Shown one piece after another: positions 31,297 through 44,617 of a DNA stretch of 64,000 nucleotides (the first letter of the stretch is position 1; every line of letters begins with the position of its first letter). Origin of the DNA: Clostridia bacterium (GTDB lineage: Bacteria; Bacillota; Clostridia; Christensenellales; UBA1242); assembly GCA_036654655.1 (NCBI GenBank), contig JAVVRP010000002.1:51841-115840 (forward strand). The letters run 5' to 3'. The notes under the pieces are model-generated. The model saw only the letters and a program-made list of their open reading frames with translations. It had not been told where the DNA came from and made no database searches. The translations under genes and the position numbers were made by a program.

Positions 31297-32088
31297 ATGG
31301 CAAGAAGAATTGTTGTAACAAGTGGAAAGGGTGGTGTTGGAAAAACAACAGTTTGTGCAAATTTGGGAGCAAAACTTGCAAGTTTTGGTTTTAATGTTCT
31401 TTTAGTAGATGCAGATATGGGATTAAATAATTTAGATGTTGTTATGGGGATTGAAAATAAAATTGTTTTTGATGTAACCGATGTAATTGAGGCAAGATGT
31501 CGCCCAGAGCAAGCGTTGATTGAAGATAAACGCTACCCAAGCCTTAAAATTTTGCCATCTGCACAAAGTTATTCTCAGGCAAAGGCAACGGGAGAACATT
31601 TAAAATATGTGTTAGACATGTTGGAAAGTAAATATGATTATATTTTAATAGATTGTCCTGCGGGAGTTGAGGCGGGTTTTCATAGGGCAGTTTTTCCTGC
31701 CACAGAAGCAATTGTTGTTGTTACTCCGCACATTTCAAGCATTAGAGATGCCGACAAAATTATTTCAATATTGTCAGCATATAACTTGCAAACAAAACAA
31801 CTTGTTATAAATCGTGTTAGAGGGGATTTGCTTTTAAGTGGAGAAATGATTAGCAATGAAGAAATTGTAAAATTTTTAAAAATTCAACTTTTGGGTGTTG
31901 TTCCAGACGATGACGACATTTCAACACTTGCAACATTAGGGATAATTAGCACACAATCAAAAGCGTCACGAGCATTTTATTTGCTAGCAGAAAATCTTCA
32001 CAATGGAACAAAAAAAATTTATGACTGCACAAAAAAATATAAAGGAATTATAGGAAATTTACGAAGAAGTCTTAAACGCAAAACTTAA
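31297..32088 (+). CDS. minD: Septum site-determining ATPase MinD
   Basis: It has the deviant Walker A TSGKGGVGKTT and VDADMGLNNLD. At 263 aa it is typical, and the C-terminus is basic (GNLRRSLKRKT). Confidence 0.9.
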   Translation: MARRIVVTSGKGGVGKTTVCANLGAKLASFGFNVLLVDADMGLNNLDVVMGIENKIVFDVTDVIEARCRPEQALIEDKRYPSLKILPSAQSYSQAKATGEHLKYVLDMLESKYDYILIDCPAGVEAGFHRAVFPATEAIVVVTPHISSIRDADKIISILSAYNLQTKQLVINRVRGDLLLSGEMISNEEIVKFLKIQLLGVVPDDDDISTLATLGIISTQSKASRAFYLLAENLHNGTKKIYDCTKKYKGIIGNLRRSLKRKT

Positions 32089-32520
32089 ATAAAATATTTT
32101 TTAAAACATTAAATAAATAAAATGCTTAAATAAATAAAATATTAAATAAATAATAAACAAATACTCAAATAATAAATACTCAAATAATAAATAATAAATA
32201 CTTAAATAATAAACAAATATTCACATAATAAATAATAAATACTTAAATAATAAATAAATAAAATTAAATAAAACAGTTAAAAACAGACAATTAAGTATGC
32301 TCAGAACATATAAAAGTTATAAATTAATTAACTAACAAATTAAATACGCAAAATTAAGCAAATAAAGCAAATAATTAATAAACAAATCAAATAAGTAAAG
32401 TAAATAAAATAAATAATCAATGAACAAATTAAATAAGTAAAGTAAATAAAGTAAATAAAATAAAATAAATAAATAAATAAATAAATAAATTAATTATTAA
32501 ACTAAACAAACAAATTTAAA
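32089..32520. repeat. Low-complexity A-rich spacer of nested AAAT/AATAAAT-type direct repeats
   Basis: (AAAT)6-7 lies at 32463-32490. A perfect 30-bp direct repeat, ataataaataataaatacttaaataataaa, occurs at 32184-32213 and 32225-32254. A 15-bp unit starting aaatactc occurs twice, at 32159 and 32174. A 28-bp repeat, aacaaat(c/t)aaataagtaaagtaaataaa, starts at 32381 and 32423. TAA stops occur in every plus-strand frame, and the track reports no ORF of 60 aa or more on either strand. Confidence 0.9.
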
Positions 32521-32532
32521 AAGGAGAGTAAT

Positions 32533-32778
32533 ATGAACACAATTGCAGAAGTTGGTATTTCAAGATTAGAAAAAGTTTTAGTTCAGGACAAAACAAAAAA
32601 TCCAAATTTTGTTTGTCAAGTTTTAAGGTCAGACATAAAACAACTTATGAACAATTACGCAGAAGTTGATGGAGATATTTTTGTTGATGTTTCATTAACA
32701 GAAACTGGATATAATTTTTTTATAAAATGTTCTGCTCGGCGTTTAAAATCTTTTGGCAGTTTGCCAGAACGTTTGTGA
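32533..32778 (+). CDS. minE: MinE-like cell-division topological specificity factor (divergent, short N-terminus)
   Basis: It is 81 aa with a strong RBS (AAGGAGAG) 6 nt upstream. The segment SRLEKVLVQDKTKNPNFVCQVLRSDIKQLMNNYAEVDGDIFVDVSLTE aligns by eye with the MinE core (ERL.L.L..DR....P..L..l..dI..Vi..Y..id...v.v.l). It lies downstream of minD. Confidence 0.5.
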   Translation: MNTIAEVGISRLEKVLVQDKTKNPNFVCQVLRSDIKQLMNNYAEVDGDIFVDVSLTETGYNFFIKCSARRLKSFGSLPERL

Positions 32779-33214
32779 TAAAATTGCGTAAATTAATTAC
32801 ACAATATTTCAATTACAATAATAATTTTTTAAAAAATAGTTTAACTTGCAATTTTTTATTTCAACAAACAAATTAATACTTTTAATGTACTGCAATTTTT
32901 TTTAAAAATAATATACTAATTAAAATTACAATGCGTGTAAAATTGTAATAAAAAATAAAGGTCACAAATGCAATGGTAATTTTTAAGTGGCAAATGTCAA
33001 AATTATAGATGCATTTAAATATTTTAAAAATATAATTTAAAAAAATTAAGTTTATATATTCTAACAAATTTTGCAAAAATGAAAATTTAAATTTTGTTTA
33101 TAACATACAAACTTATAAACATTTTTTTAAAGAAAAAAAGTGTTAAACAATTAAATTAAATTTAGAAGTAGCATAACGCACAATAAGCACCAATAATTTT
33201 TACAATTTTATAAC

Positions 33215-33245: not shown

Positions 33246-33321
33246 TGGTGGACTGTCGGGGGCTCGAACCCCGGACAGACTGATTAAGAGTCAGCTACTC
33301 TACCAACTGAGTTAACAGTCC
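33246..33321 (-). tRNA. tRNA-Lys (anticodon CTT), CCA encoded
   Basis: The reverse complement is ggactgttaactcagttggtagagtagctgactCTTaatcagtctgtccggggttcgagcccccgacagtccacca. It folds into a full cloverleaf: a 7-bp acceptor, D arm actc/gagt, anticodon stem gctga/tcagt with loop ctCTTaa, and T arm cgggg/ccccg with a ttcgagc loop. It is 76 nt. Confidence 0.93.
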
Positions 33322-33331
33322 ATAAAAGTTT

Positions 33332-33406
33332 TGGAGCGGAAGACGAGGCTTGAACTCGCAACCCTTGCCTTGGGAAGGCAATGCTCTACCATTGAGCCAC
33401 TCCCGC
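33332..33406 (-). tRNA. tRNA-Gly (anticodon CCC), CCA encoded
   Basis: The reverse complement is gcgggagtggctcaatggtagagcattgccttCCCaaggcaagggttgcgagttcaagcctcgtcttccgctcca. The acceptor is gcgggag/cttccgc, the D arm is gctc/gagc, the anticodon stem is ttgcc/ggcaa with loop ttCCCaa, and the T loop is ttcaagc. It is 75 nt. Confidence 0.93.
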
Positions 33407-33452: not shown

Positions 33453-34445
33453 TTATTTTTTAGTGCTAAAATTATATTCGTTTGCCAAAACTGAAAGAGC
33501 AACAGTTGCTCCAACAATTGGGTTGTTTCCCATGCCGATAAATCCCATCATTTCAACATGAGAAGGCACAGAACTACTTCCTGCAAATTGTGCATCACAG
33601 TGCATACGTCCCATTGTGTCGGTTATTCCATAACTTGCAGGGCCTGCTCCAACATTGTCGGGATGAAGTGTTCTTCCAGTTCCGCCACCTGATGCAACAG
33701 AAAAAAACTTTTTGTTGTTTTGATAGCACCATTTCATGTACGTTCCGGCAACTGGGTGTTGAAATCTAACAGGGTTAGTGGAATTTCCTGTTATTGAGAC
33801 ATCAACTTTTTCATGAATCATAATTGCAACGCCTTCTTCAACGTCAAAGCATCCATAAACTTTAACTTGTGAACGCTGATCGTTTGAAAATGAGGTTTCT
33901 TTAATTATTGAAAGGCTTTGAGTTTGATTGTTAAACTTTGTTTGAACATATGTAAATCCGTTTACACGAGCAATAATATAGCCAGCATCCTTTCCAAGCC
34001 CAATCAGAACAACTTTTAAATTTGTTTTTCTTGCTAAGTTTGCGTATTTTGCTATGCCAAGAGCACCTTCGGCGGCCGCAAAACTTTCGTGACCTGCTAA
34101 AAAACAAAAGCATTTTGTTTTTTCATTTAACAGCATTGCAGAAAGTTGTCCGTGGCCTATTCCAACTTTTCTTTTATCAGCAATAGAACCAATCACACAA
34201 AATGCTTGCAAGGCTTCTCCAATTTTAACCGAACATTTTTCTGCGGTTTTAGTATTTGATTTTATTGCAATTGCAACTCCCAAAGTGTATGCCTTAATTG
34301 CATTATCAAAACATATTGGTTGAATGGATTTTACAATTTTTTCAACATCAATATTTGCTTGTTTGCATATGTTTTCTGCCTCAGTTAAATTTTTAATGTT
34401 ATATTTTAACAAGGTTTTTTCTATGTTTTGTTCTTTTTGTGGCAT
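33453..34445 (-). CDS. GGGtGRT-family protein (uncharacterised conserved family)
   Basis: It contains the family-naming motif in SVASGGGTGRTLHPDNVGAGPASYG. I chose ATG 34445, whose A is shared with the TGA stop of the upstream NifU-like gene (TGATG). GAGGAG lies 5 nt upstream. Confidence 0.75.
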   Translation of the reverse strand: MPQKEQNIEKTLLKYNIKNLTEAENICKQANIDVEKIVKSIQPICFDNAIKAYTLGVAIAIKSNTKTAEKCSVKIGEALQAFCVIGSIADKRKVGIGHGQLSAMLLNEKTKCFCFLAGHESFAAAEGALGIAKYANLARKTNLKVVLIGLGKDAGYIIARVNGFTYVQTKFNNQTQSLSIIKETSFSNDQRSQVKVYGCFDVEEGVAIMIHEKVDVSITGNSTNPVRFQHPVAGTYMKWCYQNNKKFFSVASGGGTGRTLHPDNVGAGPASYGITDTMGRMHCDAQFAGSSSVPSHVEMMGFIGMGNNPIVGATVALSVLANEYNFSTKK

Positions 34446-35113
34446 CACTTCTCCTCACGTGGATTAACATAACTTTTTGCTTCGTCAAATCTCCCATATT
34501 TTTTTGTAGATTTTTGCAATGCAACACAAGAGTTTTCTCCACTTTCAACAAGTTTTAAAAGTTCTGGCATGTTTACATATTCATATCCAATAATTTCGCC
34601 GTTGCTATCAAGTGCTTGCTTTGTTATATATCCTTCTGCAAGGGTCAAATATTTTGGTCCATGTTTGCTTCCATAAATTGTGCCAATTTGTGAGCAATGT
34701 CCCTTCCCTAAATCTTCATATGCAGAGCCAACTGGCAACCCGTTTTCTGAAAAGGCAGATTGACTTCTTCCATAGGCAAGTTGCAAAAATATATTTTTCA
34801 TGGCAACATTAATTGCATCGCAAACAAGATCGGTGTTAAGTGCTTCCAAAATTGTTTTTCCGGGCAAAATTTCTCCTGCCATTGCCGCAGAATGTGTCAT
34901 GCCACTGCATCCAATTGTTTCAATCAACGCTTCGGTTATTATTCCGTCTTTAACGTTTAAAGTAAGTTTGCACGTTCCTTGCTGAGGAGCACATGCACCG
35001 CAACCATGTGAAAATCCAGAAATTTGTTTAATGTCTTTAAGTTGAACCCATTTTCCATTTTCAGGAATTGGAGAAGGTCCAAATCCATCAATGTTTTTAC
35101 AACAATCTTTCAT
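34445..35113 (-). CDS. NifU N-terminal-like Fe-S cluster scaffold-type protein
   Basis: The Cys-rich core GFSHGCGACAPQQGTCKLTLNVKDGIITEALIETIGCSGMTHSAAMAGEIL has the NifU/IscU-like layout (C...C...GC). AGGAG lies upstream of the ATG. Confidence 0.65.
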   Translation of the reverse strand: MKDCCKNIDGFGPSPIPENGKWVQLKDIKQISGFSHGCGACAPQQGTCKLTLNVKDGIITEALIETIGCSGMTHSAAMAGEILPGKTILEALNTDLVCDAINVAMKNIFLQLAYGRSQSAFSENGLPVGSAYEDLGKGHCSQIGTIYGSKHGPKYLTLAEGYITKQALDSNGEIIGYEYVNMPELLKLVESGENSCVALQKSTKKYGRFDEAKSYVNPREEK

Positions 35114-35127
35114 TTTTTTCTCCTGTT

Positions 35128-35673
35128 TTATAAACTTTCTGCATCGCCAAATTTTTTATCATATCTTTTTTTTGCTAATTTTATAACTTTTTTTGCAATT
35201 ACAACATTTTGTAAACCTTCAATTTTTGTTATTTTATCTTCTAATTGTTTATAAACCGAAAGAAAATGAATTAATTCTTCTGAAACATGTTTTGGCAATT
35301 TAGAAATGTTTTTATATGTGTTATAAAGCGGGTCATTGTATGGAATGGCAACAATTTTTTCATCCCTTACACCGCTATCAATCATTGTTATAACACCAAT
35401 TGGATAACATCTTACAAGGCAAAGTGGGTCTATGCTTTCACTGCATAAAACAAGCACGTCAAGCGCGTCACCATCTTCGCTAAGAGTACGTGGAATAAAA
35501 CCATAATTAGATGGATATTGCATGCTTGTGTAAAGCACCCTGTCCAAAATGATTGCTCCTGTTTCTTTGTCCAGTTCATATTTTTTTTTGGCACCTTTTG
35601 AAATTTCAATAACAACCAAAAAATCATCGGGTTCAATTCTTTTTTTTGCAACATTATGCCATAAATTACTCAT
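35128..35673 (-). CDS. ppa: Inorganic pyrophosphatase, family I
   Basis: Family I PPase blocks are VVIEISKGAKKKYELDKETG, YPSNYGFIP, DGDALDVLVL and DEKIVAIP. The RBS is AGGAG. Confidence 0.9.
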   Translation of the reverse strand: MSNLWHNVAKKRIEPDDFLVVIEISKGAKKKYELDKETGAIILDRVLYTSMQYPSNYGFIPRTLSEDGDALDVLVLCSESIDPLCLVRCYPIGVITMIDSGVRDEKIVAIPYNDPLYNTYKNISKLPKHVSEELIHFLSVYKQLEDKITKIEGLQNVVIAKKVIKLAKKRYDKKFGDAESL

Positions 35674-35780: not shown

Positions 35781-35809
35781 TTGCACTATTCATGGTTTTC
35801 TTGTATAAT
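35781..35809 (+). promoter_or_regulatory. Promoter for the HIT / CBS / ileS string (TTGCAC-17-TATAAT)
   Basis: ttgcac lies at 35781-35786, followed by a 17-nt spacer, then tataat at 35804-35809. ATG 35817 lies 7 nt after the -10. Confidence 0.55.
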
Positions 35810-35816
35810 GAAAATT

Positions 35817-36215
35817 ATGAAAAAAACATCAAAAAGAGAAGATTGTTTATTCTGTAATATTGCAAATAAAAACATTTCAAGCAATATTATTTATGAAAAC
35901 GAAACAACGTTAGCGTTTTTAGATATCAATCAGTCACATATTGGTCACACGTTAGTTATTCCAAAACAACATGTATGCAACTTGTTAAATGCAAATCAAA
36001 AACAAATTACAGAAGTTTTTAAAGCAGTTAAAAAGGTTTCTAATTATTATTTAAATTGTGGATTCACAGGTATTAAAGTTATGATTGCAAATGGGCAAAG
36101 TTCGGGGCAAACAGTTTTTCATTTGCACGTGCACATTTTTCCTTGTGGAATTAAATATGACAAAAAAATATCAACAAAACAAATATTAGAAATGTTAAAA
36201 ATTAAGGAGAGATAA
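35817..36215 (+). CDS. HIT-family nucleotide hydrolase/transferase
   Basis: It has the histidine-triad motif HLHVHIFP, plus CLFCNI and GHTLVIPKQH. The start is uncertain. ATG 35817 (MKKTSK...) and ATG 35808 both lack an SD, and the track's TTG 35760 would add a hydrophobic, non-conserved extension that overlaps the promoter. Confidence 0.8.
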   Translation: MKKTSKREDCLFCNIANKNISSNIIYENETTLAFLDINQSHIGHTLVIPKQHVCNLLNANQKQITEVFKAVKKVSNYYLNCGFTGIKVMIANGQSSGQTVFHLHVHIFPCGIKYDKKISTKQILEMLKIKER

Positions 36216-36958
36216 TGCCAAAAAAAAATACAAACAATAAACAATCAAATGCAAAAGAGTTTATAAGTTCTTACAATAATATAGACCATTCACTAAGAAT
36301 TCAACATGGATTAAAAAGAAGTATGGGCTTTTCTGACATGATAAGGCGGGCGGTTCAATTTAATTATATTGTTAGAAAGTATGAAGAGGATTTAATTGAT
36401 TATGGACGTTTGCGTAACGCTATTATCCACAGAAGTAATGAAGATTTTGTTATCGCAGAGCCTCACGATGACATTGTTAGTAAAATAAAAATTATTGAAA
36501 CACTTATAACAACCCCACCAAAGGCAATGGAAATGATTTCACAAAAAGATGTGTTATCGGTTGATGCAAGTGTAAGTGTTAGAAAAACAATTCAATTAAT
36601 TGCAGAATCAAAATTTAGCAATATTCCAGTATACAAAAATGGTGAACTTGTTGGGGTTGCAAACGGACAAAAAATATTGGATGCGTTTGGAAAACACTTA
36701 ATTACGGGCAAAAGTGCAGACGAATTTTTAAATAACAAAACCATTGAAGACATTATTATGTTGCCAATTGAAATAAATTATTACAAAGTTTTTTCAGAAG
36801 AAGTTACAATTGAAGAAATTTTAAGAGAGTTTCAAATTAACAGAAAGTTGCTTTGTGTTATTGTAACAAAAAGCGGGAGCATGCACGATGTTCCAATTGG
36901 AATAATTACAACAAGTGATGTAATGCATATGAATGAAGTTATGGAAAATTACAATTAA
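36215..36958 (+). CDS. CBS-pair protein with an N-terminal HEPN-like (Rx4H) helical domain
   Basis: The ATG shares its A with the HIT TAA stop (TAATG). The C-terminal half holds two CBS motifs (VLSVDASVSVRKTIQLIAESKFSNIPVYKNGELVGV and VFSEEVTIEEILREF...CVIVTKSG...PIGIITTSDV). The N-terminal ~95 aa contain YGRLRNAIIHRS, an R-x4-H motif in a Swt1-like HEPN context. The HEPN call is by eye only. Confidence 0.7.
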   Translation: MPKKNTNNKQSNAKEFISSYNNIDHSLRIQHGLKRSMGFSDMIRRAVQFNYIVRKYEEDLIDYGRLRNAIIHRSNEDFVIAEPHDDIVSKIKIIETLITTPPKAMEMISQKDVLSVDASVSVRKTIQLIAESKFSNIPVYKNGELVGVANGQKILDAFGKHLITGKSADEFLNNKTIEDIIMLPIEINYYKVFSEEVTIEEILREFQINRKLLCVIVTKSGSMHDVPIGIITTSDVMHMNEVMENYN

Positions 36959-36978: not shown

Positions 36979-39900
36979 ATGTATAAAAAAGTAGATACAA
37001 AATTAGAGTTTGTAAAAAATGAATTAGAAATTATGGAATTTTGGGCAAAAAAACAAACTTTTAAAAAATCGCTGGAAAAAAACAAAGGTAATAAAATATT
37101 TTCATTTTATGAAGGCCCGCCAACTGCAAATGGAATGCCTCATATTGGGCATCCATTAACAAGAGCAATGAAAGATGTTATTCCTCGTTTTAAAACAATG
37201 CAGGGATATTATGTTCCAAGAATGGCAGGGTGGGATACTCATGGCCTTCCGGTGGAACTGGAAGTTGAAAAGCAAATTGGATCAACAGGTAAGCAAGATA
37301 TAGAAAAGTTTGGTGTGGATAAATTTATTTTACAATGCAAAGAAAGTGTGTGGAAGTATAAAAAAATATGGGAAAATATTACTGAACGATTAGGTTATTG
37401 GGTGGACATGGCAAAGCCTTATATAACTTATTCAAATGATTACATAGAAAGTGTGTTTTGGGCACTTTCGCAAATGAACAAAATGGGTCTAATTTATCAT
37501 GGGCACAAGGTTGTTCCTTATTGTCCAAGATGTGGAACGTCTTTGTCAAAAATGGAAGTGGAACAAAATTATATTACTTTAAAAGAAAACAGTATTTATG
37601 TTAAATTTAGAACTATCAAAGATAAAAATACATATTTTTTGGTGTGGACAACCACCCCATGGACGCTTCCAAGCAATATTGCACTTTGCGTTAATCCAAC
37701 GCAAAACTATTGTATTGTGGAACAAGATGGCATGCGTTTTATAATGCTAGAAGCATTAGTAAGCAAACTCTTTGCGGAACCAAAAATTGTTGAAAGGATG
37801 AAAGGCTCAGATTTAGAAAATCAACAATACGAACCTATATTTCAATACGTTAAGGACAAGGTAAAAAATGGTTATTTTGTAACCATGGATAATTTTGTAA
37901 CTGTTGAAGATGGAACGGGCATTGTTCACATTGCTCCTGCGTTTGGTGCCGATGATTATGAAGTTGGCAAAAAATACAACTTGCCTGTTATTCAACTTAT
38001 CAATGATGAAGGCAAGTTTACCCAAGAGGCAACCGATTATGTTGGACTAAAAGCAAAATCTGCCGATAAATTAATTATTGAGCGTTTGCAAAAAGAAGGA
38101 AAACTTTTTAAAATTTTACCATTTGAACACAGTTATCCGCATTGTTGGAGATGTAATACCCCACTTTTGTATTATGCAAAAACAACATGGTTTGTAGAAA
38201 CTTCAAAAATTAAAGATAGGCTTGTTAAAAACAACAAATCTGTTAATTGGTTGCCACAAAACATAAAAACAGGAAGAATGGGCAACTTTTTGGAAAATAA
38301 TGTTGATTGGGGAATTTCTAGAACTCGCTTTTGGGGAACCCCATTACCGTTTTGGGTTTGCGAATGTGGAAATTTTCATGTTGTTGGAAGCAAAACTGAA
38401 CTTGAAAAACTTAGCGGAAAAAAAATTACAGATTTGCACAAGCCCGAAATTGACGAAATAACAATACCTTGTGACAAGTGTGGCAAAACTATGGTGCGAA
38501 CACCAGAAGTTCTTGATTGTTGGTTTGATAGTGGCTCAATGCCATTTGCACAATATCATTATCCGTTTGAAAATAAAGAATTGTTTGAAAAAACTTTTCC
38601 CGCCGACTATATTGCTGAGGGGCTTGATCAAACTCGTGGATGGTTTTATTCTTTGCAAGCCATAAGTTCAATTTTATTTAACAAATCACCGTACAAAACT
38701 TGTATTGCACTTGGGCTTATTAATGATAAAAACGGACAAAAAATGAGCAAAAGCAAAGGTAATGGAATTGATCCATGGACCATTTTAAACAAGTATGGTG
38801 CAGATGCTTTAAGATGGTATTTTTATAATTCTTGCTCTCCGGGGCAACCTCTTTCCTTTAATGAAGAAAATTTGATAGAACTTCAACGCAAAACGTTTGG
38901 AACACTTTGGAATGTTTACGCTTTTTACGTTCTTTATGCACAAATAGATAACTTTGACCCAACAAAGCATGACATCAGCACATGCTCATATACTTTTATG
39001 GACAAATGGTTGCTTTCGGAATTTAACGCACTTGTAAATTATGTTACAAAATGTTTAGAAAGTTTTGATATGCAAAATGCAAGCAAAAAAATAACTGAAT
39101 TTATTGATGTGCTTTCAAATTGGTACATAAGGCGTTCACGAGAAAGATTTTGGGCAAGTGGAAAAACAGAAAATAAAATATCAGCCTTTTCAACTTTGTA
39201 TGAAGTGCTTTGCGGGCTGGTAAAATTGATGGCGCCATTTGCTCCATTTATAACAGAAAATATTTATCAGAATATTGTATGCAGTGTGAACAAAAACGCA
39301 CCAGAAAGCGTGCATTTGTGTGAATATCCTGTTGCTAACGAAAAACTTGTTAACAAAACACTTAATTTGGGCATGAATGAAGTTTTAAAAATAGTTTCGC
39401 TTGGCAGAAGTGCAAGAAATATGTCGGGCATAAAAAACCGACAGCCATTAGAAAAGGCGTATGTATGCACAAGCAAACCATTTCACCTAAAAAAAGAACT
39501 TGTGGACCTTGCATTAAATGAACTTAATGTGGAAAAATTGGAAGTGATGCAAGACGCCAGCAAATATGTAACTTTTGAACTTAAACCACAATTAAAAACA
39601 GTTGGACCAAAATATGGAAAGCATGTTAATGCAATAAAAGAACATTTGCAAAAATGTACAAATGAACAAATAAACATTTTAAACAGTGGAAAAAGTATCC
39701 AATTTAACTTGGAAAATATAAATGTTGTTTTAGGTGCGGAAGATGTTATTGTTTTAATTAAAAACAAAGAAGGTTTTGTTAGCGAAAGTGACGGTGATTT
39801 TACTGTTGTTTTAAACACAACGCTAACACCAGATTTAATTGCAAAAGGATATGTTCGTGAAATAATTAGTCACGTTCAAAATTTAAGAAAAGATAGTGGG

Positions 39901-40095
39901 CTTGAAGTAACAGATCATATTGTTATTGGAATTCAAAGTGCGAAAGAAGTTTGTGATGCTGTTAAAAATGCAGAAAAAGAAATTTGTGCAAACACACTTG
40001 CAAACAAAATAACATATGAATCTAAACAAAATTTTGAAATAGAGTTTACAATAAATGAAATTAGTGTTAAAATCTCCATCAGTGAGGCAAAATGA
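36979..40095 (+). CDS. ileS: Isoleucine--tRNA ligase (long, type-2-like, 1,038 aa)
   Basis: It has the HIGH motif (PTANGMPHIGH), KMSKS (KMSKSKGN) and an editing domain (WTTTPWTLPSN). The gap to the upstream gene is only 20 nt. Confidence 0.95.
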   Translation: MYKKVDTKLEFVKNELEIMEFWAKKQTFKKSLEKNKGNKIFSFYEGPPTANGMPHIGHPLTRAMKDVIPRFKTMQGYYVPRMAGWDTHGLPVELEVEKQIGSTGKQDIEKFGVDKFILQCKESVWKYKKIWENITERLGYWVDMAKPYITYSNDYIESVFWALSQMNKMGLIYHGHKVVPYCPRCGTSLSKMEVEQNYITLKENSIYVKFRTIKDKNTYFLVWTTTPWTLPSNIALCVNPTQNYCIVEQDGMRFIMLEALVSKLFAEPKIVERMKGSDLENQQYEPIFQYVKDKVKNGYFVTMDNFVTVEDGTGIVHIAPAFGADDYEVGKKYNLPVIQLINDEGKFTQEATDYVGLKAKSADKLIIERLQKEGKLFKILPFEHSYPHCWRCNTPLLYYAKTTWFVETSKIKDRLVKNNKSVNWLPQNIKTGRMGNFLENNVDWGISRTRFWGTPLPFWVCECGNFHVVGSKTELEKLSGKKITDLHKPEIDEITIPCDKCGKTMVRTPEVLDCWFDSGSMPFAQYHYPFENKELFEKTFPADYIAEGLDQTRGWFYSLQAISSILFNKSPYKTCIALGLINDKNGQKMSKSKGNGIDPWTILNKYGADALRWYFYNSCSPGQPLSFNEENLIELQRKTFGTLWNVYAFYVLYAQIDNFDPTKHDISTCSYTFMDKWLLSEFNALVNYVTKCLESFDMQNASKKITEFIDVLSNWYIRRSRERFWASGKTENKISAFSTLYEVLCGLVKLMAPFAPFITENIYQNIVCSVNKNAPESVHLCEYPVANEKLVNKTLNLGMNEVLKIVSLGRSARNMSGIKNRQPLEKAYVCTSKPFHLKKELVDLALNELNVEKLEVMQDASKYVTFELKPQLKTVGPKYGKHVNAIKEHLQKCTNEQINILNSGKSIQFNLENINVVLGAEDVIVLIKNKEGFVSESDGDFTVVLNTTLTPDLIAKGYVREIISHVQNLRKDSGLEVTDHIVIGIQSAKEVCDAVKNAEKEICANTLANKITYESKQNFEIEFTINEISVKISISEAK

Positions 40096-40937
40096 GATTG
40101 GCGGATAATTGGCAGAGTTACCAAGTTGTAGGCACAGGAAATGGAGAAAAATTTGAACGTTGGGGACAGTTTTATTTGTTAAGGCCCGACCCACAAGTAA
40201 TTTGGGAATCTGACACAGATTATTCCAAGGACAAAAGGCTTTGCGGAAGATATGTTAGAGAAAGTTCGGGTGGCGGAAATTGGCAAATAAAAAGTTTGCC
40301 TGCTGAATGGATTGTTGAGTGGAAGAACATAAAATTTTTAATTAAACCAATGGGCTTTAAACACACAGGGTTGTTTCCAGAACAAGCAACAAATTGGGAT
40401 TTAATGATAAATTTAATAAAAAAAGCAGATAGGACAATCAGGGTTTTAAATTTGTTTGCATACACCGGTGGGGCATCACTTGCATGTGCCAGCGCAGGGG
40501 CAAGCGTTACCCATGTTGACGCAAGCAAAGGCATGGTGGAGCGTGCAAAAGAAAATTCAAAACTATCCAACATAAGCACAATAAGATGGATTGTTGACGA
40601 TTGTGAAAAATTTTTGATTAGAGAAATAAAACGTGAAAACAAATACGATGCAATAATAATGGATCCGCCAAGTTATGGAAGAGGACCTAATGGCGAAATG
40701 TGGAAATTGGAAGATAACCTTTATAAGTTGGTTAAGTTATGTAAAAATGTACTTAGTGAAAATCCGTTATTTATTATAATAAATTCATACACCACGGGGC
40801 TTGCTCCAAGTGTGCTTTCAAACATTTTAACTCTTGTTTTTGGAGAAAAAAATGTTCTTGCCGATGAAATAGGGTTGCCAACAGACCAAAAAATAGTTTT
40901 GCCTTGTGGGGCAACAGGAGTTAAAACATGGATGTAA
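40092..40937 (+). CDS. Class I SAM-dependent (RlmI/RlmK-like) rRNA methyltransferase
   Basis: It has the SAM-binding VLNLFAYTGGASLA, the catalytic-type IIMDPPSYG and FKHTGLFPEQ. Its ATG overlaps the ileS stop (ATGA). Confidence 0.7.
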   Translation: MRLADNWQSYQVVGTGNGEKFERWGQFYLLRPDPQVIWESDTDYSKDKRLCGRYVRESSGGGNWQIKSLPAEWIVEWKNIKFLIKPMGFKHTGLFPEQATNWDLMINLIKKADRTIRVLNLFAYTGGASLACASAGASVTHVDASKGMVERAKENSKLSNISTIRWIVDDCEKFLIREIKRENKYDAIIMDPPSYGRGPNGEMWKLEDNLYKLVKLCKNVLSENPLFIIINSYTTGLAPSVLSNILTLVFGEKNVLADEIGLPTDQKIVLPCGATGVKTWM

Positions 40938-41617
40938 TTTTTGAGGACAATCATTTATTAGTGGTTCAAAAACCGCAAAATGTGCCAACACAAGCCGATA
41001 GTTCAGGTGACTTGGATCTTTTAAGCATGGCAAAAGCATATGTAAAAGAAACAAAAAACAAAAAAGGTGATGCTTTTGTTGGGTTGGTTCACAGACTAGA
41101 TAGGCCAACAGGTGGTTCAATAGTTTTTGCAAAAACAACAAAATCCGCCAGCAGATTAAGTGCGCAAATTGTAAAAGGAAAATTTGAAAAAAAATATTTT
41201 GCAGTTGTGTATGGCAACCCAAGGTCAAAATCGGGAAGACTTGTAAATTATTTAAAAAAAGATGAGCAAACAAACATTGTTTCAATTGTTCCAATGAGTG
41301 AAAAGGGCGCAAAAAGAGCCGAACTTGTTTATGAGGTTTTGGAAGAAAAAGAAGGAATATCATTAATAGGTGTTCAAATTCTTTCGGGCAGAAGCCATCA
41401 AATCCGTGTTCAAATGGCAAATTTGGGGCATCCTGTTTGGGGTGATTCAAAATATGGCACCAGCAAGGCGGAAAATTTGGCATTGTGGGCATGGTCACTT
41501 TCTTTTTTTCACCCTGTTAAAAAGTCAAAAATGACGTTTATAAGTTTGCCACCCGAAGATGATCAGCCGTGGAAGATGTTTAATATTGAAAAATTTGTCA
41601 ATATTTCTAAAAACTAA
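40928..41617 (+). CDS. RluA-family pseudouridine synthase
   Basis: It has the catalytic motif HRLDRPTGG, a C-terminal SGRSHQIRVQMA, and a 10-nt overlap with the upstream methyltransferase. Confidence 0.85.
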   Translation: MDVIFEDNHLLVVQKPQNVPTQADSSGDLDLLSMAKAYVKETKNKKGDAFVGLVHRLDRPTGGSIVFAKTTKSASRLSAQIVKGKFEKKYFAVVYGNPRSKSGRLVNYLKKDEQTNIVSIVPMSEKGAKRAELVYEVLEEKEGISLIGVQILSGRSHQIRVQMANLGHPVWGDSKYGTSKAENLALWAWSLSFFHPVKKSKMTFISLPPEDDQPWKMFNIEKFVNISKN

Positions 41618-43441: not shown

Positions 43442-44617
43442 TTAAAAAACTATTTTATCAAAATTATTATCACACAAACTAGGGATTTCTTGCAAGTATT
43501 TTGTTATTTTGTTTTGGCTATCAATAATATTTTTGATATTATAAAAACTTAAAACAGTTTTAATTTTATTAATATATTTTCCTAACAAATCATTGTCATT
43601 AAGTTCAAAATCTGTTACTGGTGTATGGCAATTAAATTGTTTAAAATAATATTTTTCAAGGTCTGCTGATGAACAAAATTTTGGAGCCTTAACAGCATCC
43701 TGATGATAAACTTTTGATGGATAAATTGTAACCATTTTTTCACTATACTTATGAAAATGTGGGCCCAAAATCATTTGGGGTTGTTCCAGTATATTCCCAC
43801 CAGCAAACATTTGAATGTGAGATTTATCGTCTTTAACCATGTCATATCTGCCCAAAAACACAGGTTCTATTCCTTTTAATAAAACATGTATATCAAATTT
43901 CATATTTATCATATTTTTTGAATTTGGAGTGCAATCTTTTTTGTAAAAATTTTTAACATTTTCATTTTCTGTGTGGTCGCCCATATATTGATAGCATGAA
44001 GATAAAATGTATGTTAAATAACCAAAATCTTCACACAAAGAAGCAAATAAATATTGATTTTTAACAAAATATGTTTTTGTCATCAATCCATCAATATTTG
44101 CATCAAAGTCAAAAGCATTCATTTTTTTTGTAATAAAAAATTTGGGTAAGGACAAAATGTGATTTACAACATTTTGACAAAGTGGTGCATCAATAATTTG
44201 CTGTACACATTTTTGCTTATCCAAAAGAATTTGAGAAATTGTCATTTGTTGTGAAGTTGAAATATCCTTTTCAATGTTAAAACCACACAAAAAATTTGTT
44301 CGCTCAATTCGTTTAATTCTTACTTTTTCATAAAATTTGTCAATGTTTTCAATAATTTTTTTGCGTCTAGCCTTGTTATATTTGTATAAAGGTTCGGTTG
44401 GAAAATCAAATTTTCTGTTAATTTTATCTCTATACAAACTATTTTTTTTATATTTGTCCATTGGTACTTCAAAATCACCAGGTTCTTTTTGATTATTGTC
44501 TGGCAAAAAAGTTTTTTGACCTGAAATTTTTGTTAATTCAACTGAACTTCTTTTTGCGTTAGACGTTGCATTTTTTGTTTTGTTTGTACAAGAATAAACT
44601 GATTGCTGGTTAAGCAT
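43442..44617 (-). CDS. Hypothetical protein (391 aa) with no motif I recognise
   Basis: It is a long uninterrupted ORF with a basic, probably disordered N-terminus (KTKNATSNAKRSS...). It converges on pepF with a 6-nt gap. I could not identify a catalytic or family signature. Confidence 0.55.
   Translation of the reverse strand: MLNQQSVYSCTNKTKNATSNAKRSSVELTKISGQKTFLPDNNQKEPGDFEVPMDKYKKNSLYRDKINRKFDFPTEPLYKYNKARRKKIIENIDKFYEKVRIKRIERTNFLCGFNIEKDISTSQQMTISQILLDKQKCVQQIIDAPLCQNVVNHILSLPKFFITKKMNAFDFDANIDGLMTKTYFVKNQYLFASLCEDFGYLTYILSSCYQYMGDHTENENVKNFYKKDCTPNSKNMINMKFDIHVLLKGIEPVFLGRYDMVKDDKSHIQMFAGGNILEQPQMILGPHFHKYSEKMVTIYPSKVYHQDAVKAPKFCSSADLEKYYFKQFNCHTPVTDFELNDNDLLGKYINKIKTVLSFYNIKNIIDSQNKITKYLQEIPSLCDNNFDKIVF

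Follow-up and report, generated by a model that had tools for sequence, protein, structure and literature searches.

The window analyzed here is a 64,000-nucleotide (nt) stretch of a contig from a Clostridia bacterium. It carries a gene for a 247-amino-acid (aa) protein in which a predicted HEPN domain is followed by a pair of CBS domains, and which we consider a candidate ligand-gated RNase. The gene lies between a HIT-superfamily gene and ileS (Table 1). In line with a preliminary description of this DNA, the stop codon of the HIT gene and the ATG of the 247-aa gene were found to share a single base (36215, in TAATG), and a Shine-Dalgarno sequence, AAGGAG, lies 5 nt ahead of that ATG. Together these form the arrangement expected for translational coupling.

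Downstream, ileS begins 20 nt past the stop codon of the 247-aa gene and is followed by genes for a PF10672 methyltransferase, RluA and PepF, with successive overlaps of 4 nt and 10 nt and then a 27-nt gap. A promoter and terminator scan, whose counts did not exceed shuffled expectation in this AT-rich DNA, placed no terminator-like site between the operon genes. Given the 20-nt spacing, the downstream overlaps and the lack of an intervening terminator-like site, the earlier proposal that the gene pair heads an ileS operon appears reasonable, and the 247-aa gene is probably co-transcribed with ileS and the rRNA-modification genes in the source genome. The base composition at the gene pair showed no anomaly pointing to recent insertion. 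No T-box or other Rfam leader was found ahead of ileS or the HIT gene in the window (gathering score; E ≤ 1), nor ahead of ileS in 13 related loci at gathering score.

Table 1. Features of the locus, in positions of the window
Feature	Coordinates	Strand	Basis
HEPN-like and CBS-pair protein gene, 247 aa	36215..36958	+	Open reading frame; AlphaFold2 model
N-terminal four-helix domain, predicted HEPN, residues 12-99	36248..36511	+	AlphaFold2 helices; subthreshold HEPN matches
RLRNAIIH, predicted R-x4-H catalytic motif (R67, N68, H72)	36407..36430	+	Invariance across alignments
CBS pair (Bateman module), residues ~108-243	36536..36943	+	Pfam CBS, PDB profile matches, Foldseek
GIITTSD, canonical G-h-h-T-x-x-D ribose-binding motif of CBS2	36899..36919	+	Conservation
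Junction: Shine-Dalgarno AAGGAG 36204-36209, HIT stop TAA 36213-36215, next ATG 36215-36217	36204..36217	+	Read from sequence
HIT-superfamily gene, Hint-like, 135 aa	35808..36215	+	Pfam HIT, DcpS_C, HLHVHIF triad; alternative start ATG 35817
ileS	36979..40095	+	Open reading frame; Pfam tRNA-synt_1/Anticodon_1/DUF5915
S-adenosylmethionine (SAM)-dependent methyltransferase (PF10672) and RluA-family pseudouridine synthase, overlapping genes	40092..41617	+	Pfam
Inorganic pyrophosphatase, upstream, divergent	35128..35673	-	Pfam Pyrophosphatase on identical contig

Domain composition of the 247-aa protein

The 247-aa protein was modeled with AlphaFold2 as a monomer, using 34 homologues. The full-length model (predicted local distance difference test score [pLDDT], 88.6; predicted template modeling score, 0.77) places helices at residues 12-31, 39-46, 57-70 and 85-99, with a short helix at residues 51-55, ahead of the CBS pair. 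The N-terminal domain modeled alone adopted the same fold, the models having pLDDT values of 85-89. Residues 63-72 (36401-36430) read YGRLRNAIIH; in the predicted structure, R67 and N68 fall in the final turn of helix 3, with H72 shortly beyond its end. As the HEPN motif we took R-x4-6-H with a polar residue (N, D or H) directly after the arginine, kept among homologues, and the definition of HEPN topology and motif position was taken from the literature (PMC3710099). The predicted location of the motif at the end of helix 3 agrees with that definition.

Conservation was assessed in four alignments: A1, with 34 sequences; A3, with 79 homologues sharing 24-48% identity with the window protein; A4, with 45 sequences of an environmental branch; and A5, with 53 N-terminal-only sequences. 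Only six columns are invariant in A3, namely L66, R67, N68, H72, A81 and P83. The first four of these residues are likewise invariant in A1 and A5, and their equivalents in A4 are L57, R58, N59 and H63. Since its residues are among the only six invariant columns in A3, the R-x4-H motif is no chance feature. The HEPN signature that had been picked out from this one sequence is conserved as R67-N68-x3-H72, with its equivalents in the environmental branch.

Matches of the N-terminal domain to HEPN models recurred across the family at subthreshold levels. A Pfam scan of the 79 A3 members returned RiboL-PSP-HEPN for 18, HepT-like for 9 (best E value, 8.6e-4), Cthe2314 for 2 and Apea for 1. When the 53 N-terminal domains were scanned with PADLOC, 23 matched CARF_HEPN (PDLC01806; best E value, 9.6e-5), with the matches mapping to model positions 311-388 of 410, at its HEPN end; further subthreshold PADLOC matches were to RTasHEPN (8 of 53) and PD-T4-2_B. 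A PDB profile search aligned the HepT toxin 6m6w_B from helix 1 to the motif, with LRNaivH in register over LRNIAVH (E value, 1.6). The sole Foldseek match with a TM score above 0.5 was the HEPN domain of sacsin (3o10; TMq, 0.56; probability, 0.47), which is not significant. These nearest weak matches, to RiboL-PSP, HepT and CARF-HEPN, do not bear out the "Swt1-like" label of the preliminary description: no Swt1 HEPN model appeared among the Pfam matches listed at E ≤ 10 for the N-terminal domain of the window protein, or among the best 25 of 33 Pfam families matched by the 79 members at E ≤ 0.1. Two other models gave better E values than any named HEPN model, Pfam DUF6548 in 9 of the 79 A3 members (best, 6.9e-5) and the PADLOC candidate PDC-S64 in 13 of the 53 N-terminal domains (best, 1.3e-5). 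From the invariant motif, its predicted position and the recurrent subthreshold matches, we regard the N-terminal domain as very probably a HEPN domain, an assignment that is well supported, not proven.

The CBS pair is confirmed by both sequence and predicted fold. Pfam CBS matched the 247-aa protein in two stretches (4.4e-11), its only Pfam matches, and 78 of the 79 A3 homologues also match Pfam CBS. With the full model as query, Foldseek returned many solved CBS pairs at a probability of 1.0 and no other fold; these matches include AcuB with AMP, ADP, ATP or diadenosine tetraphosphate (Ap4A), CorC with ATP, and MJ0100 with SAM. The GIITTSD stretch of CBS2 conforms to the ribose-phosphate motif G-h-h-(T/S)-x-x-(D/N) and is the predicted ligand site, with T232 and D235 kept in at least 90% of the 79 homologues. 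Its counterpart in CBS1 reads GVANGQK in the clade of the window protein and GLLT in the wider family. The earlier reading of the protein as a helical, HEPN-like N terminus joined to a CBS pair thus holds, with the AlphaFold2 model and the Pfam CBS matches behind it.

Predicted mechanism and known counterparts

HEPN RNases and CBS pairs both usually dimerize. We propose that the HEPN-CBS protein would form a dimer, that its CBS pair would bind an adenosine-containing ligand at the conserved CBS2 site, and that the bound ligand would alter the geometry of the dimer such that an RNase site is switched on or off. This site would be composite and metal independent, built from R67, N68 and H72 of two subunits. 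With the motif invariant and predicted to lie at the HEPN position, the idea of a CBS-gated RNase put forward in the preliminary description appears reasonable, and we assign the full mechanism, a dimeric HEPN-type RNase gated by an adenosine ligand, a probability of roughly 0.6. It builds on the established domain composition, motif invariance and position, conserved CBS2 ligand motif and genomic contexts, and adds dimerization, ligand gating and RNase activity as steps that we infer.

Several points weigh against this interpretation. No Pfam or PADLOC HEPN model reaches its curated threshold. PDB searches with the full-length profile returned CBS proteins only, and those with the N-terminal profile returned nothing significant; Foldseek searches with the isolated N-terminal domain were also without a significant match in the PDB (best E value, 1.3) and BFVD. 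When the N-terminal profile was compared by hhalign with DS-11, with the DS-33 HEPN region and with a 70-sequence RiboL-PSP-like alignment, no domain-level match was obtained. In addition, the RNase activity of the family and the dimer are both predicted, the structural model being a monomer. Finally, because the CBS1 motif has diverged to GVANGQK in the clade of the window protein, the ligand may be unusual.

The subthreshold HEPN models and the lack of a significant Foldseek match for the isolated domain would also suit an N-terminal domain that is not a nuclease but a set of nucleic-acid- or protein-binding helices, making the protein a CBS-controlled regulator comparable to the CcpN-type helix-turn-helix (HTH)-CBS repressors. 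Some family members are indeed named "predicted transcriptional regulator" in JGI and UniRef, and inactive, RNA-binding HEPN domains are known, for example in Swt1 (Anantharaman et al. 2013). However, no HTH or other DNA-binding family matched at any threshold tried, and the R-N-x3-H residues, the HEPN catalytic trio, never vary and sit at the HEPN position; the "regulator" names probably stem from generic groupings of CBS regulators. We therefore consider a non-nuclease role distinctly unlikely.

The preliminary description knew of no described HEPN-CBS protein with this context, but two precedents for a ligand-gated HEPN-CBS RNase exist, one predicted and one validated in defense. Fusions of HEPN to CBS, sometimes together with HD, were listed as early as Anantharaman et al. 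2013, who suggested a role in controlling RNA stability in response to sensed nucleotides; their examples, alr3009 and gi 118580987 (Pelobacter propionicus), were filed under Abi2/Swt1-like HEPN. Compared by description only, these fusions have the same domain combination as the window protein, but some of them carry HD as an additional domain, whereas the best 150 representatives of the present family all lack it. More recently, the DefensePredictor study (bioRxiv 2025, Science 2026, PMC13092281) described DS-11, a single protein with CBS and HEPN domains that was validated as an anti-phage defense in E. coli. The DS-11 mutants R330A and H335A (HEPN) and Y157A (an aromatic residue of CBS) lose defense, and the authors concluded that CBS regulates the HEPN nuclease through a bound adenine derivative (PMC13092281).

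DS-11 (WP_000257686.1) and the window protein are alike in being single chains with a CBS pair and a HEPN domain carrying R-N-x3-H (RNDVMH in DS-11), and they carry a similar aromatic motif in CBS1, which reads YSQLPV in DS-11, YSQxPVY in the family consensus and FSNIPVY in the window protein. The proposed logic is also the same, a CBS dimer bound to an adenine ligand that would control a HEPN RNase. However, the domain order is reversed: DS-11 has an N-terminal region, a CBS pair at residues 134-241 and HEPN at 287-362, whereas HEPN comes first in the window protein, and the chains are 365 aa and 247 aa long, respectively. BLASTP aligned the two over only 8 residues (E value, 0.37), and hhalign gave a probability of 0.3%. 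The HEPN domain of DS-11 matches HEPN_SAV2148, whereas that of the window family weakly matches other models, and DS-11 is encoded by an accessory E. coli gene, whereas the window gene lies in a housekeeping operon. Because of the opposite domain order and the lack of detectable sequence similarity, the window protein falls outside the DS-11 family, although on paper it would work like DS-11.

Three other systems share parts of this design. The CARF-HEPN proteins of type III CRISPR (Csm6/Csx1) likewise fuse a sensor of an adenine signal to a dimeric HEPN RNase, and PADLOC CARF_HEPN is the most frequent, if subthreshold, match of the N-terminal domain. The window model also has a short beta bridge directly after the motif (residues 71 and 79), where Csx1 has a beta-hairpin (PMC3710099). 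In contrast to CARF-HEPN proteins, the sensor of the window protein is a CBS pair rather than CARF, is C-terminal, and has no CRISPR-Cas context. HepT toxins of HEPN-MNT pairs (SO_3166, PDB 6m6w) are likewise small HEPN proteins with LRNxxVH, but no MNT antitoxin gene was adjacent in any locus examined, and a fused CBS pair is present instead. The anticodon nucleases PrrC and RloC resemble three homologues of the window protein in being embedded in type I restriction-modification (R-M) operons; these homologues, however, lack their ABC-ATPase domain, and no R-M operon surrounds the gene in the window.

Genomic settings of the family

A search with the N-terminal profile recovered 986 clusters at 50% identity with E ≤ 1e-3, 394 of them with E ≤ 1e-10. 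Since nearly all of the best 150 of the 986 representatives are 225-250 aa long, the architecture appears fixed. An identical protein in a Clostridia metagenome-assembled genome carries no annotation beyond "CBS domain-containing protein." In a scan of a genome collection, 435 species genomes, all from uncultured gut Clostridia, contained a relative, and 80 loci (L004-L083) were kept for analysis; a further 80 metagenome loci represent the environmental branch. The family also occurs in cultured Bacillaceae (Lysinibacillus, Ornithinibacillus and Oceanobacillus), without a clear partner gene, and a plasmid search gave only five weak matches. Lmo0553/CbpA, the cyclic di-AMP-binding protein of Listeria, was ruled out as a family member, being a CBS and ACT protein. 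Two records named as Listeria and Enterococcus phages carry homologues (L171 and L172; OR849199.1 and OR846607.1) but are no evidence of carriage by phages: both are unannotated contigs from wastewater, flagged UNVERIFIED_ORG, in which bacterial DNA has probably been deposited under a phage name.

The settings of the gene in gut Clostridia are dominated by housekeeping functions. The commonest neighbor is the gene for the large bacterial signal recognition particle (SRP) RNA, which lies 88-320 nt upstream, usually divergently, in 36 of the 80 loci (for example, L018:5575-5840 and L005:1933-2196). This adjacency is independent of the downstream genes, and no SRP RNA gene was found beside family members outside the gut-Clostridia clade. 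Downstream, ileS occurs within 600 nt in 33 of the 80 loci, at a spacing of 8-20 nt in several genomes; in many relatives, ~300 nt of unexplained sequence separate ileS from the HEPN-CBS gene. The block of methyltransferase, RluA and PepF genes follows in ~45 of the 80 loci. Elsewhere in the gut clade, spoVG lies upstream (10 loci), RNase R-smpB downstream (7 loci) or rnpA nearby, and both of the closest relatives that were looked up (60 and 59% identity) have the gene oriented divergently from rpmH-rnpA-yidD. Divergence of the HEPN-CBS protein correlated with that of IleS, although only moderately (Mantel r, 0.40; 0 of 2000 permutations). Among L004-L083, the pairwise identity of the IleS proteins encoded downstream of the HEPN-CBS gene falls to 31% between related genomes, which suggests that two different IleRS types share this position.

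In contrast to the gut clade, three loci of the environmental branch (L087, L094 and L104) have the homologue inserted in a type I R-M operon, with hsdS on one side and hsdR on the other. PrrC and other HEPN nucleases of abortive infection classically occupy this position. In L087 and L094, the start of the homologue overlaps hsdS by 4 nt. The homologue in L087 (P0289) shares 27% identity with the window protein. The R-M-embedded loci span L087:5745-11349 and L094:3049-11549. In both, one encoded protein bears a weak resemblance to IS200-type (Y1) transposases; the L094 locus also carries an AAA_14/DUF4143 ATPase, and two tRNA genes mark the end of the L087 island. Neighbors in the environmental branch are highly variable overall. 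No recurrent small partner or MNT antitoxin gene was found there, the largest cluster of environmental neighbors (74 loci) having 6 members and consisting of a membrane protein.

These settings bear on whether the same HEPN-CBS molecule might serve abortive infection in the window organism, as DS-11 and PrrC do: infection would shift the adenine-nucleotide pool, the RNase would fire and translation would stop. The DS-11 precedent, the homologues within type I R-M operons, the very variable environmental neighborhoods, as for mobile defense genes, and the weak matches to defense HEPN models are all consistent with such a role. In the clade of the window protein, however, the gene sits among housekeeping genes (SRP RNA, ileS, rnpA, RNase R/smpB and spoVG), in several genomes at the short distance from ileS noted above, and its protein diverges in correlation with IleS. 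Furthermore, no integrase, R-M or other defense genes lie nearby in the window, and no PADLOC model matches the window protein itself. An abortive-infection role here is thus possible though not probable. On the grounds of synteny we lean toward a resident, non-island role, perhaps in housekeeping or stress-related RNA cleavage, in which the window gene looks like a vertically kept gene rather than a member of a defense island.

Going further, a HEPN-CBS RNase derived from abortive infection may have been domesticated as a resident gene across an order of gut Clostridia and tied to the SRP RNA and the ileS-rRNA-modification operon. It would then be gated by an energy signal or alarmone and would process or cleave SRP RNA, tRNA or rRNA instead of defending against phages; the coupled Hint gene in one genome would point to an AMP-X ligand. 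We regard this scenario as speculative and rather doubtful.

The HIT neighbor, the wider window and implications

The HIT protein matched Pfam HIT at 2.1e-21 (76.8 bits; cut-off, 21.5) and DcpS_C at 7.6e-16, and the histidine triad HLHVHIF (H-x-H-x-H-x-x) can be read in its sequence. Both the gene caller and our analysis choose ATG 35808 as its start, with ATG 35817 possible, whereas the start at 35781 given in the preliminary description is merely an in-frame TTG with nothing in its favor. By eye, TTGCAC (35781-35786) and TATAAT (35804-35809) are seen upstream, 17 nt apart, with the TATAAT -10 box overlapping the first ATG; a transcript beginning ~7 nt past TATAAT would start at the second ATG, so that the HIT mRNA would have no leader. 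With a -35 hexamer agreeing at only 3 of 6 positions, this site was not listed by the consensus scan. Among NCBIfam models, HinT scored 5.3e-26 and purine nucleoside phosphoramidase 1.3e-9. The protein belongs to the HIT superfamily, likely to its Hint branch; it has the same HIT domain, triad and length (~135 aa) as the Hint/HinT nucleoside phosphoramidases but scores under the NCBIfam HinT cut-offs, and because HinT reaches only 91.5 bits against a cut-off of 130 bits, no equivalog was assigned. Judged by these matches, the HIT protein is Hint-like, of the nucleoside phosphoramidase type, and not of the diadenosine polyphosphate (ApnA) hydrolase, Fhit or ApnA-phosphorylase type.

The preliminary description had speculatively read the locus as a three-part module with the CBS pair as sensor, HEPN as effector and HIT as ligand remover. 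On this reading, the CBS pair would sense an AMP-X or ApnA compound, and HIT, through translational coupling made alongside the RNase, would reset or restrain it by removing that ligand. The TAATG overlap with its good Shine-Dalgarno sequence would suit such a module, and CBS pairs can bind Ap4A, as in the AcuB structure 9s4y among the fold matches. The lack of conservation of the adjacency argues against it. No HIT gene was found upstream of a homologue in any of the 80 species-level genome loci (tblastn with the window HIT protein plus neighbor clustering) or the 80 environmental metagenome loci, that is, in 0 of 160 homologous loci, nor in the two closest relatives; the adjacency occurs only in three contigs of the same organism and is not kept in the other lineages looked at. 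With several hundred species, two neighbors each and 1-2 HIT genes per small genome, we estimate that about one such adjacency would be expected by chance. Moreover, the HIT protein is of the Hint-like phosphoramidase type rather than the Fhit or ApnA-phosphorylase type. The HIT gene is most likely a lineage-specific neighbor rather than a functional partner, its overlap being peculiar to one genome and probably incidental, and we judge the three-part module highly unlikely. The supposed tie to HIT, which gave the finding its appeal, does not stand.

Elsewhere in the window, the minus strand at 33453-35113 encodes a GGGtGRT-family protein (PF14057, 2e-169) and, upstream of it, a 222-aa protein with a weak NifU-like N-terminal match; the two genes share 4 nt and resemble a conserved pair. 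A 391-aa open reading frame without a Pfam match lies at 43442-44617 on the minus strand, between pepF and a uracil-DNA glycosylase gene. An AT-rich tract of ~415 bp of degenerate (TAAA)n-like repeats, at 32101-32515, is located upstream of tRNA-Lys(CTT) and tRNA-Gly(CCC) (33246-33406); the G+C content over 32000-32999 is 19%.

CBS-gated HEPN RNases have only just been demonstrated, in one E. coli defense protein. The family to which the window protein belongs is large (~1000 clusters at 50% identity) and is labeled only "CBS domain-containing protein" or "predicted transcriptional regulator." Its domain order is the reverse of that of DS-11, and it occurs in two settings, type I R-M operons on the one hand and housekeeping positions in gut Clostridia and cultivable Bacillaceae on the other. 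The family would therefore offer tractable hosts for two questions: which ligand such sensors read, and whether routine RNA metabolism can recruit a defense-type RNase.

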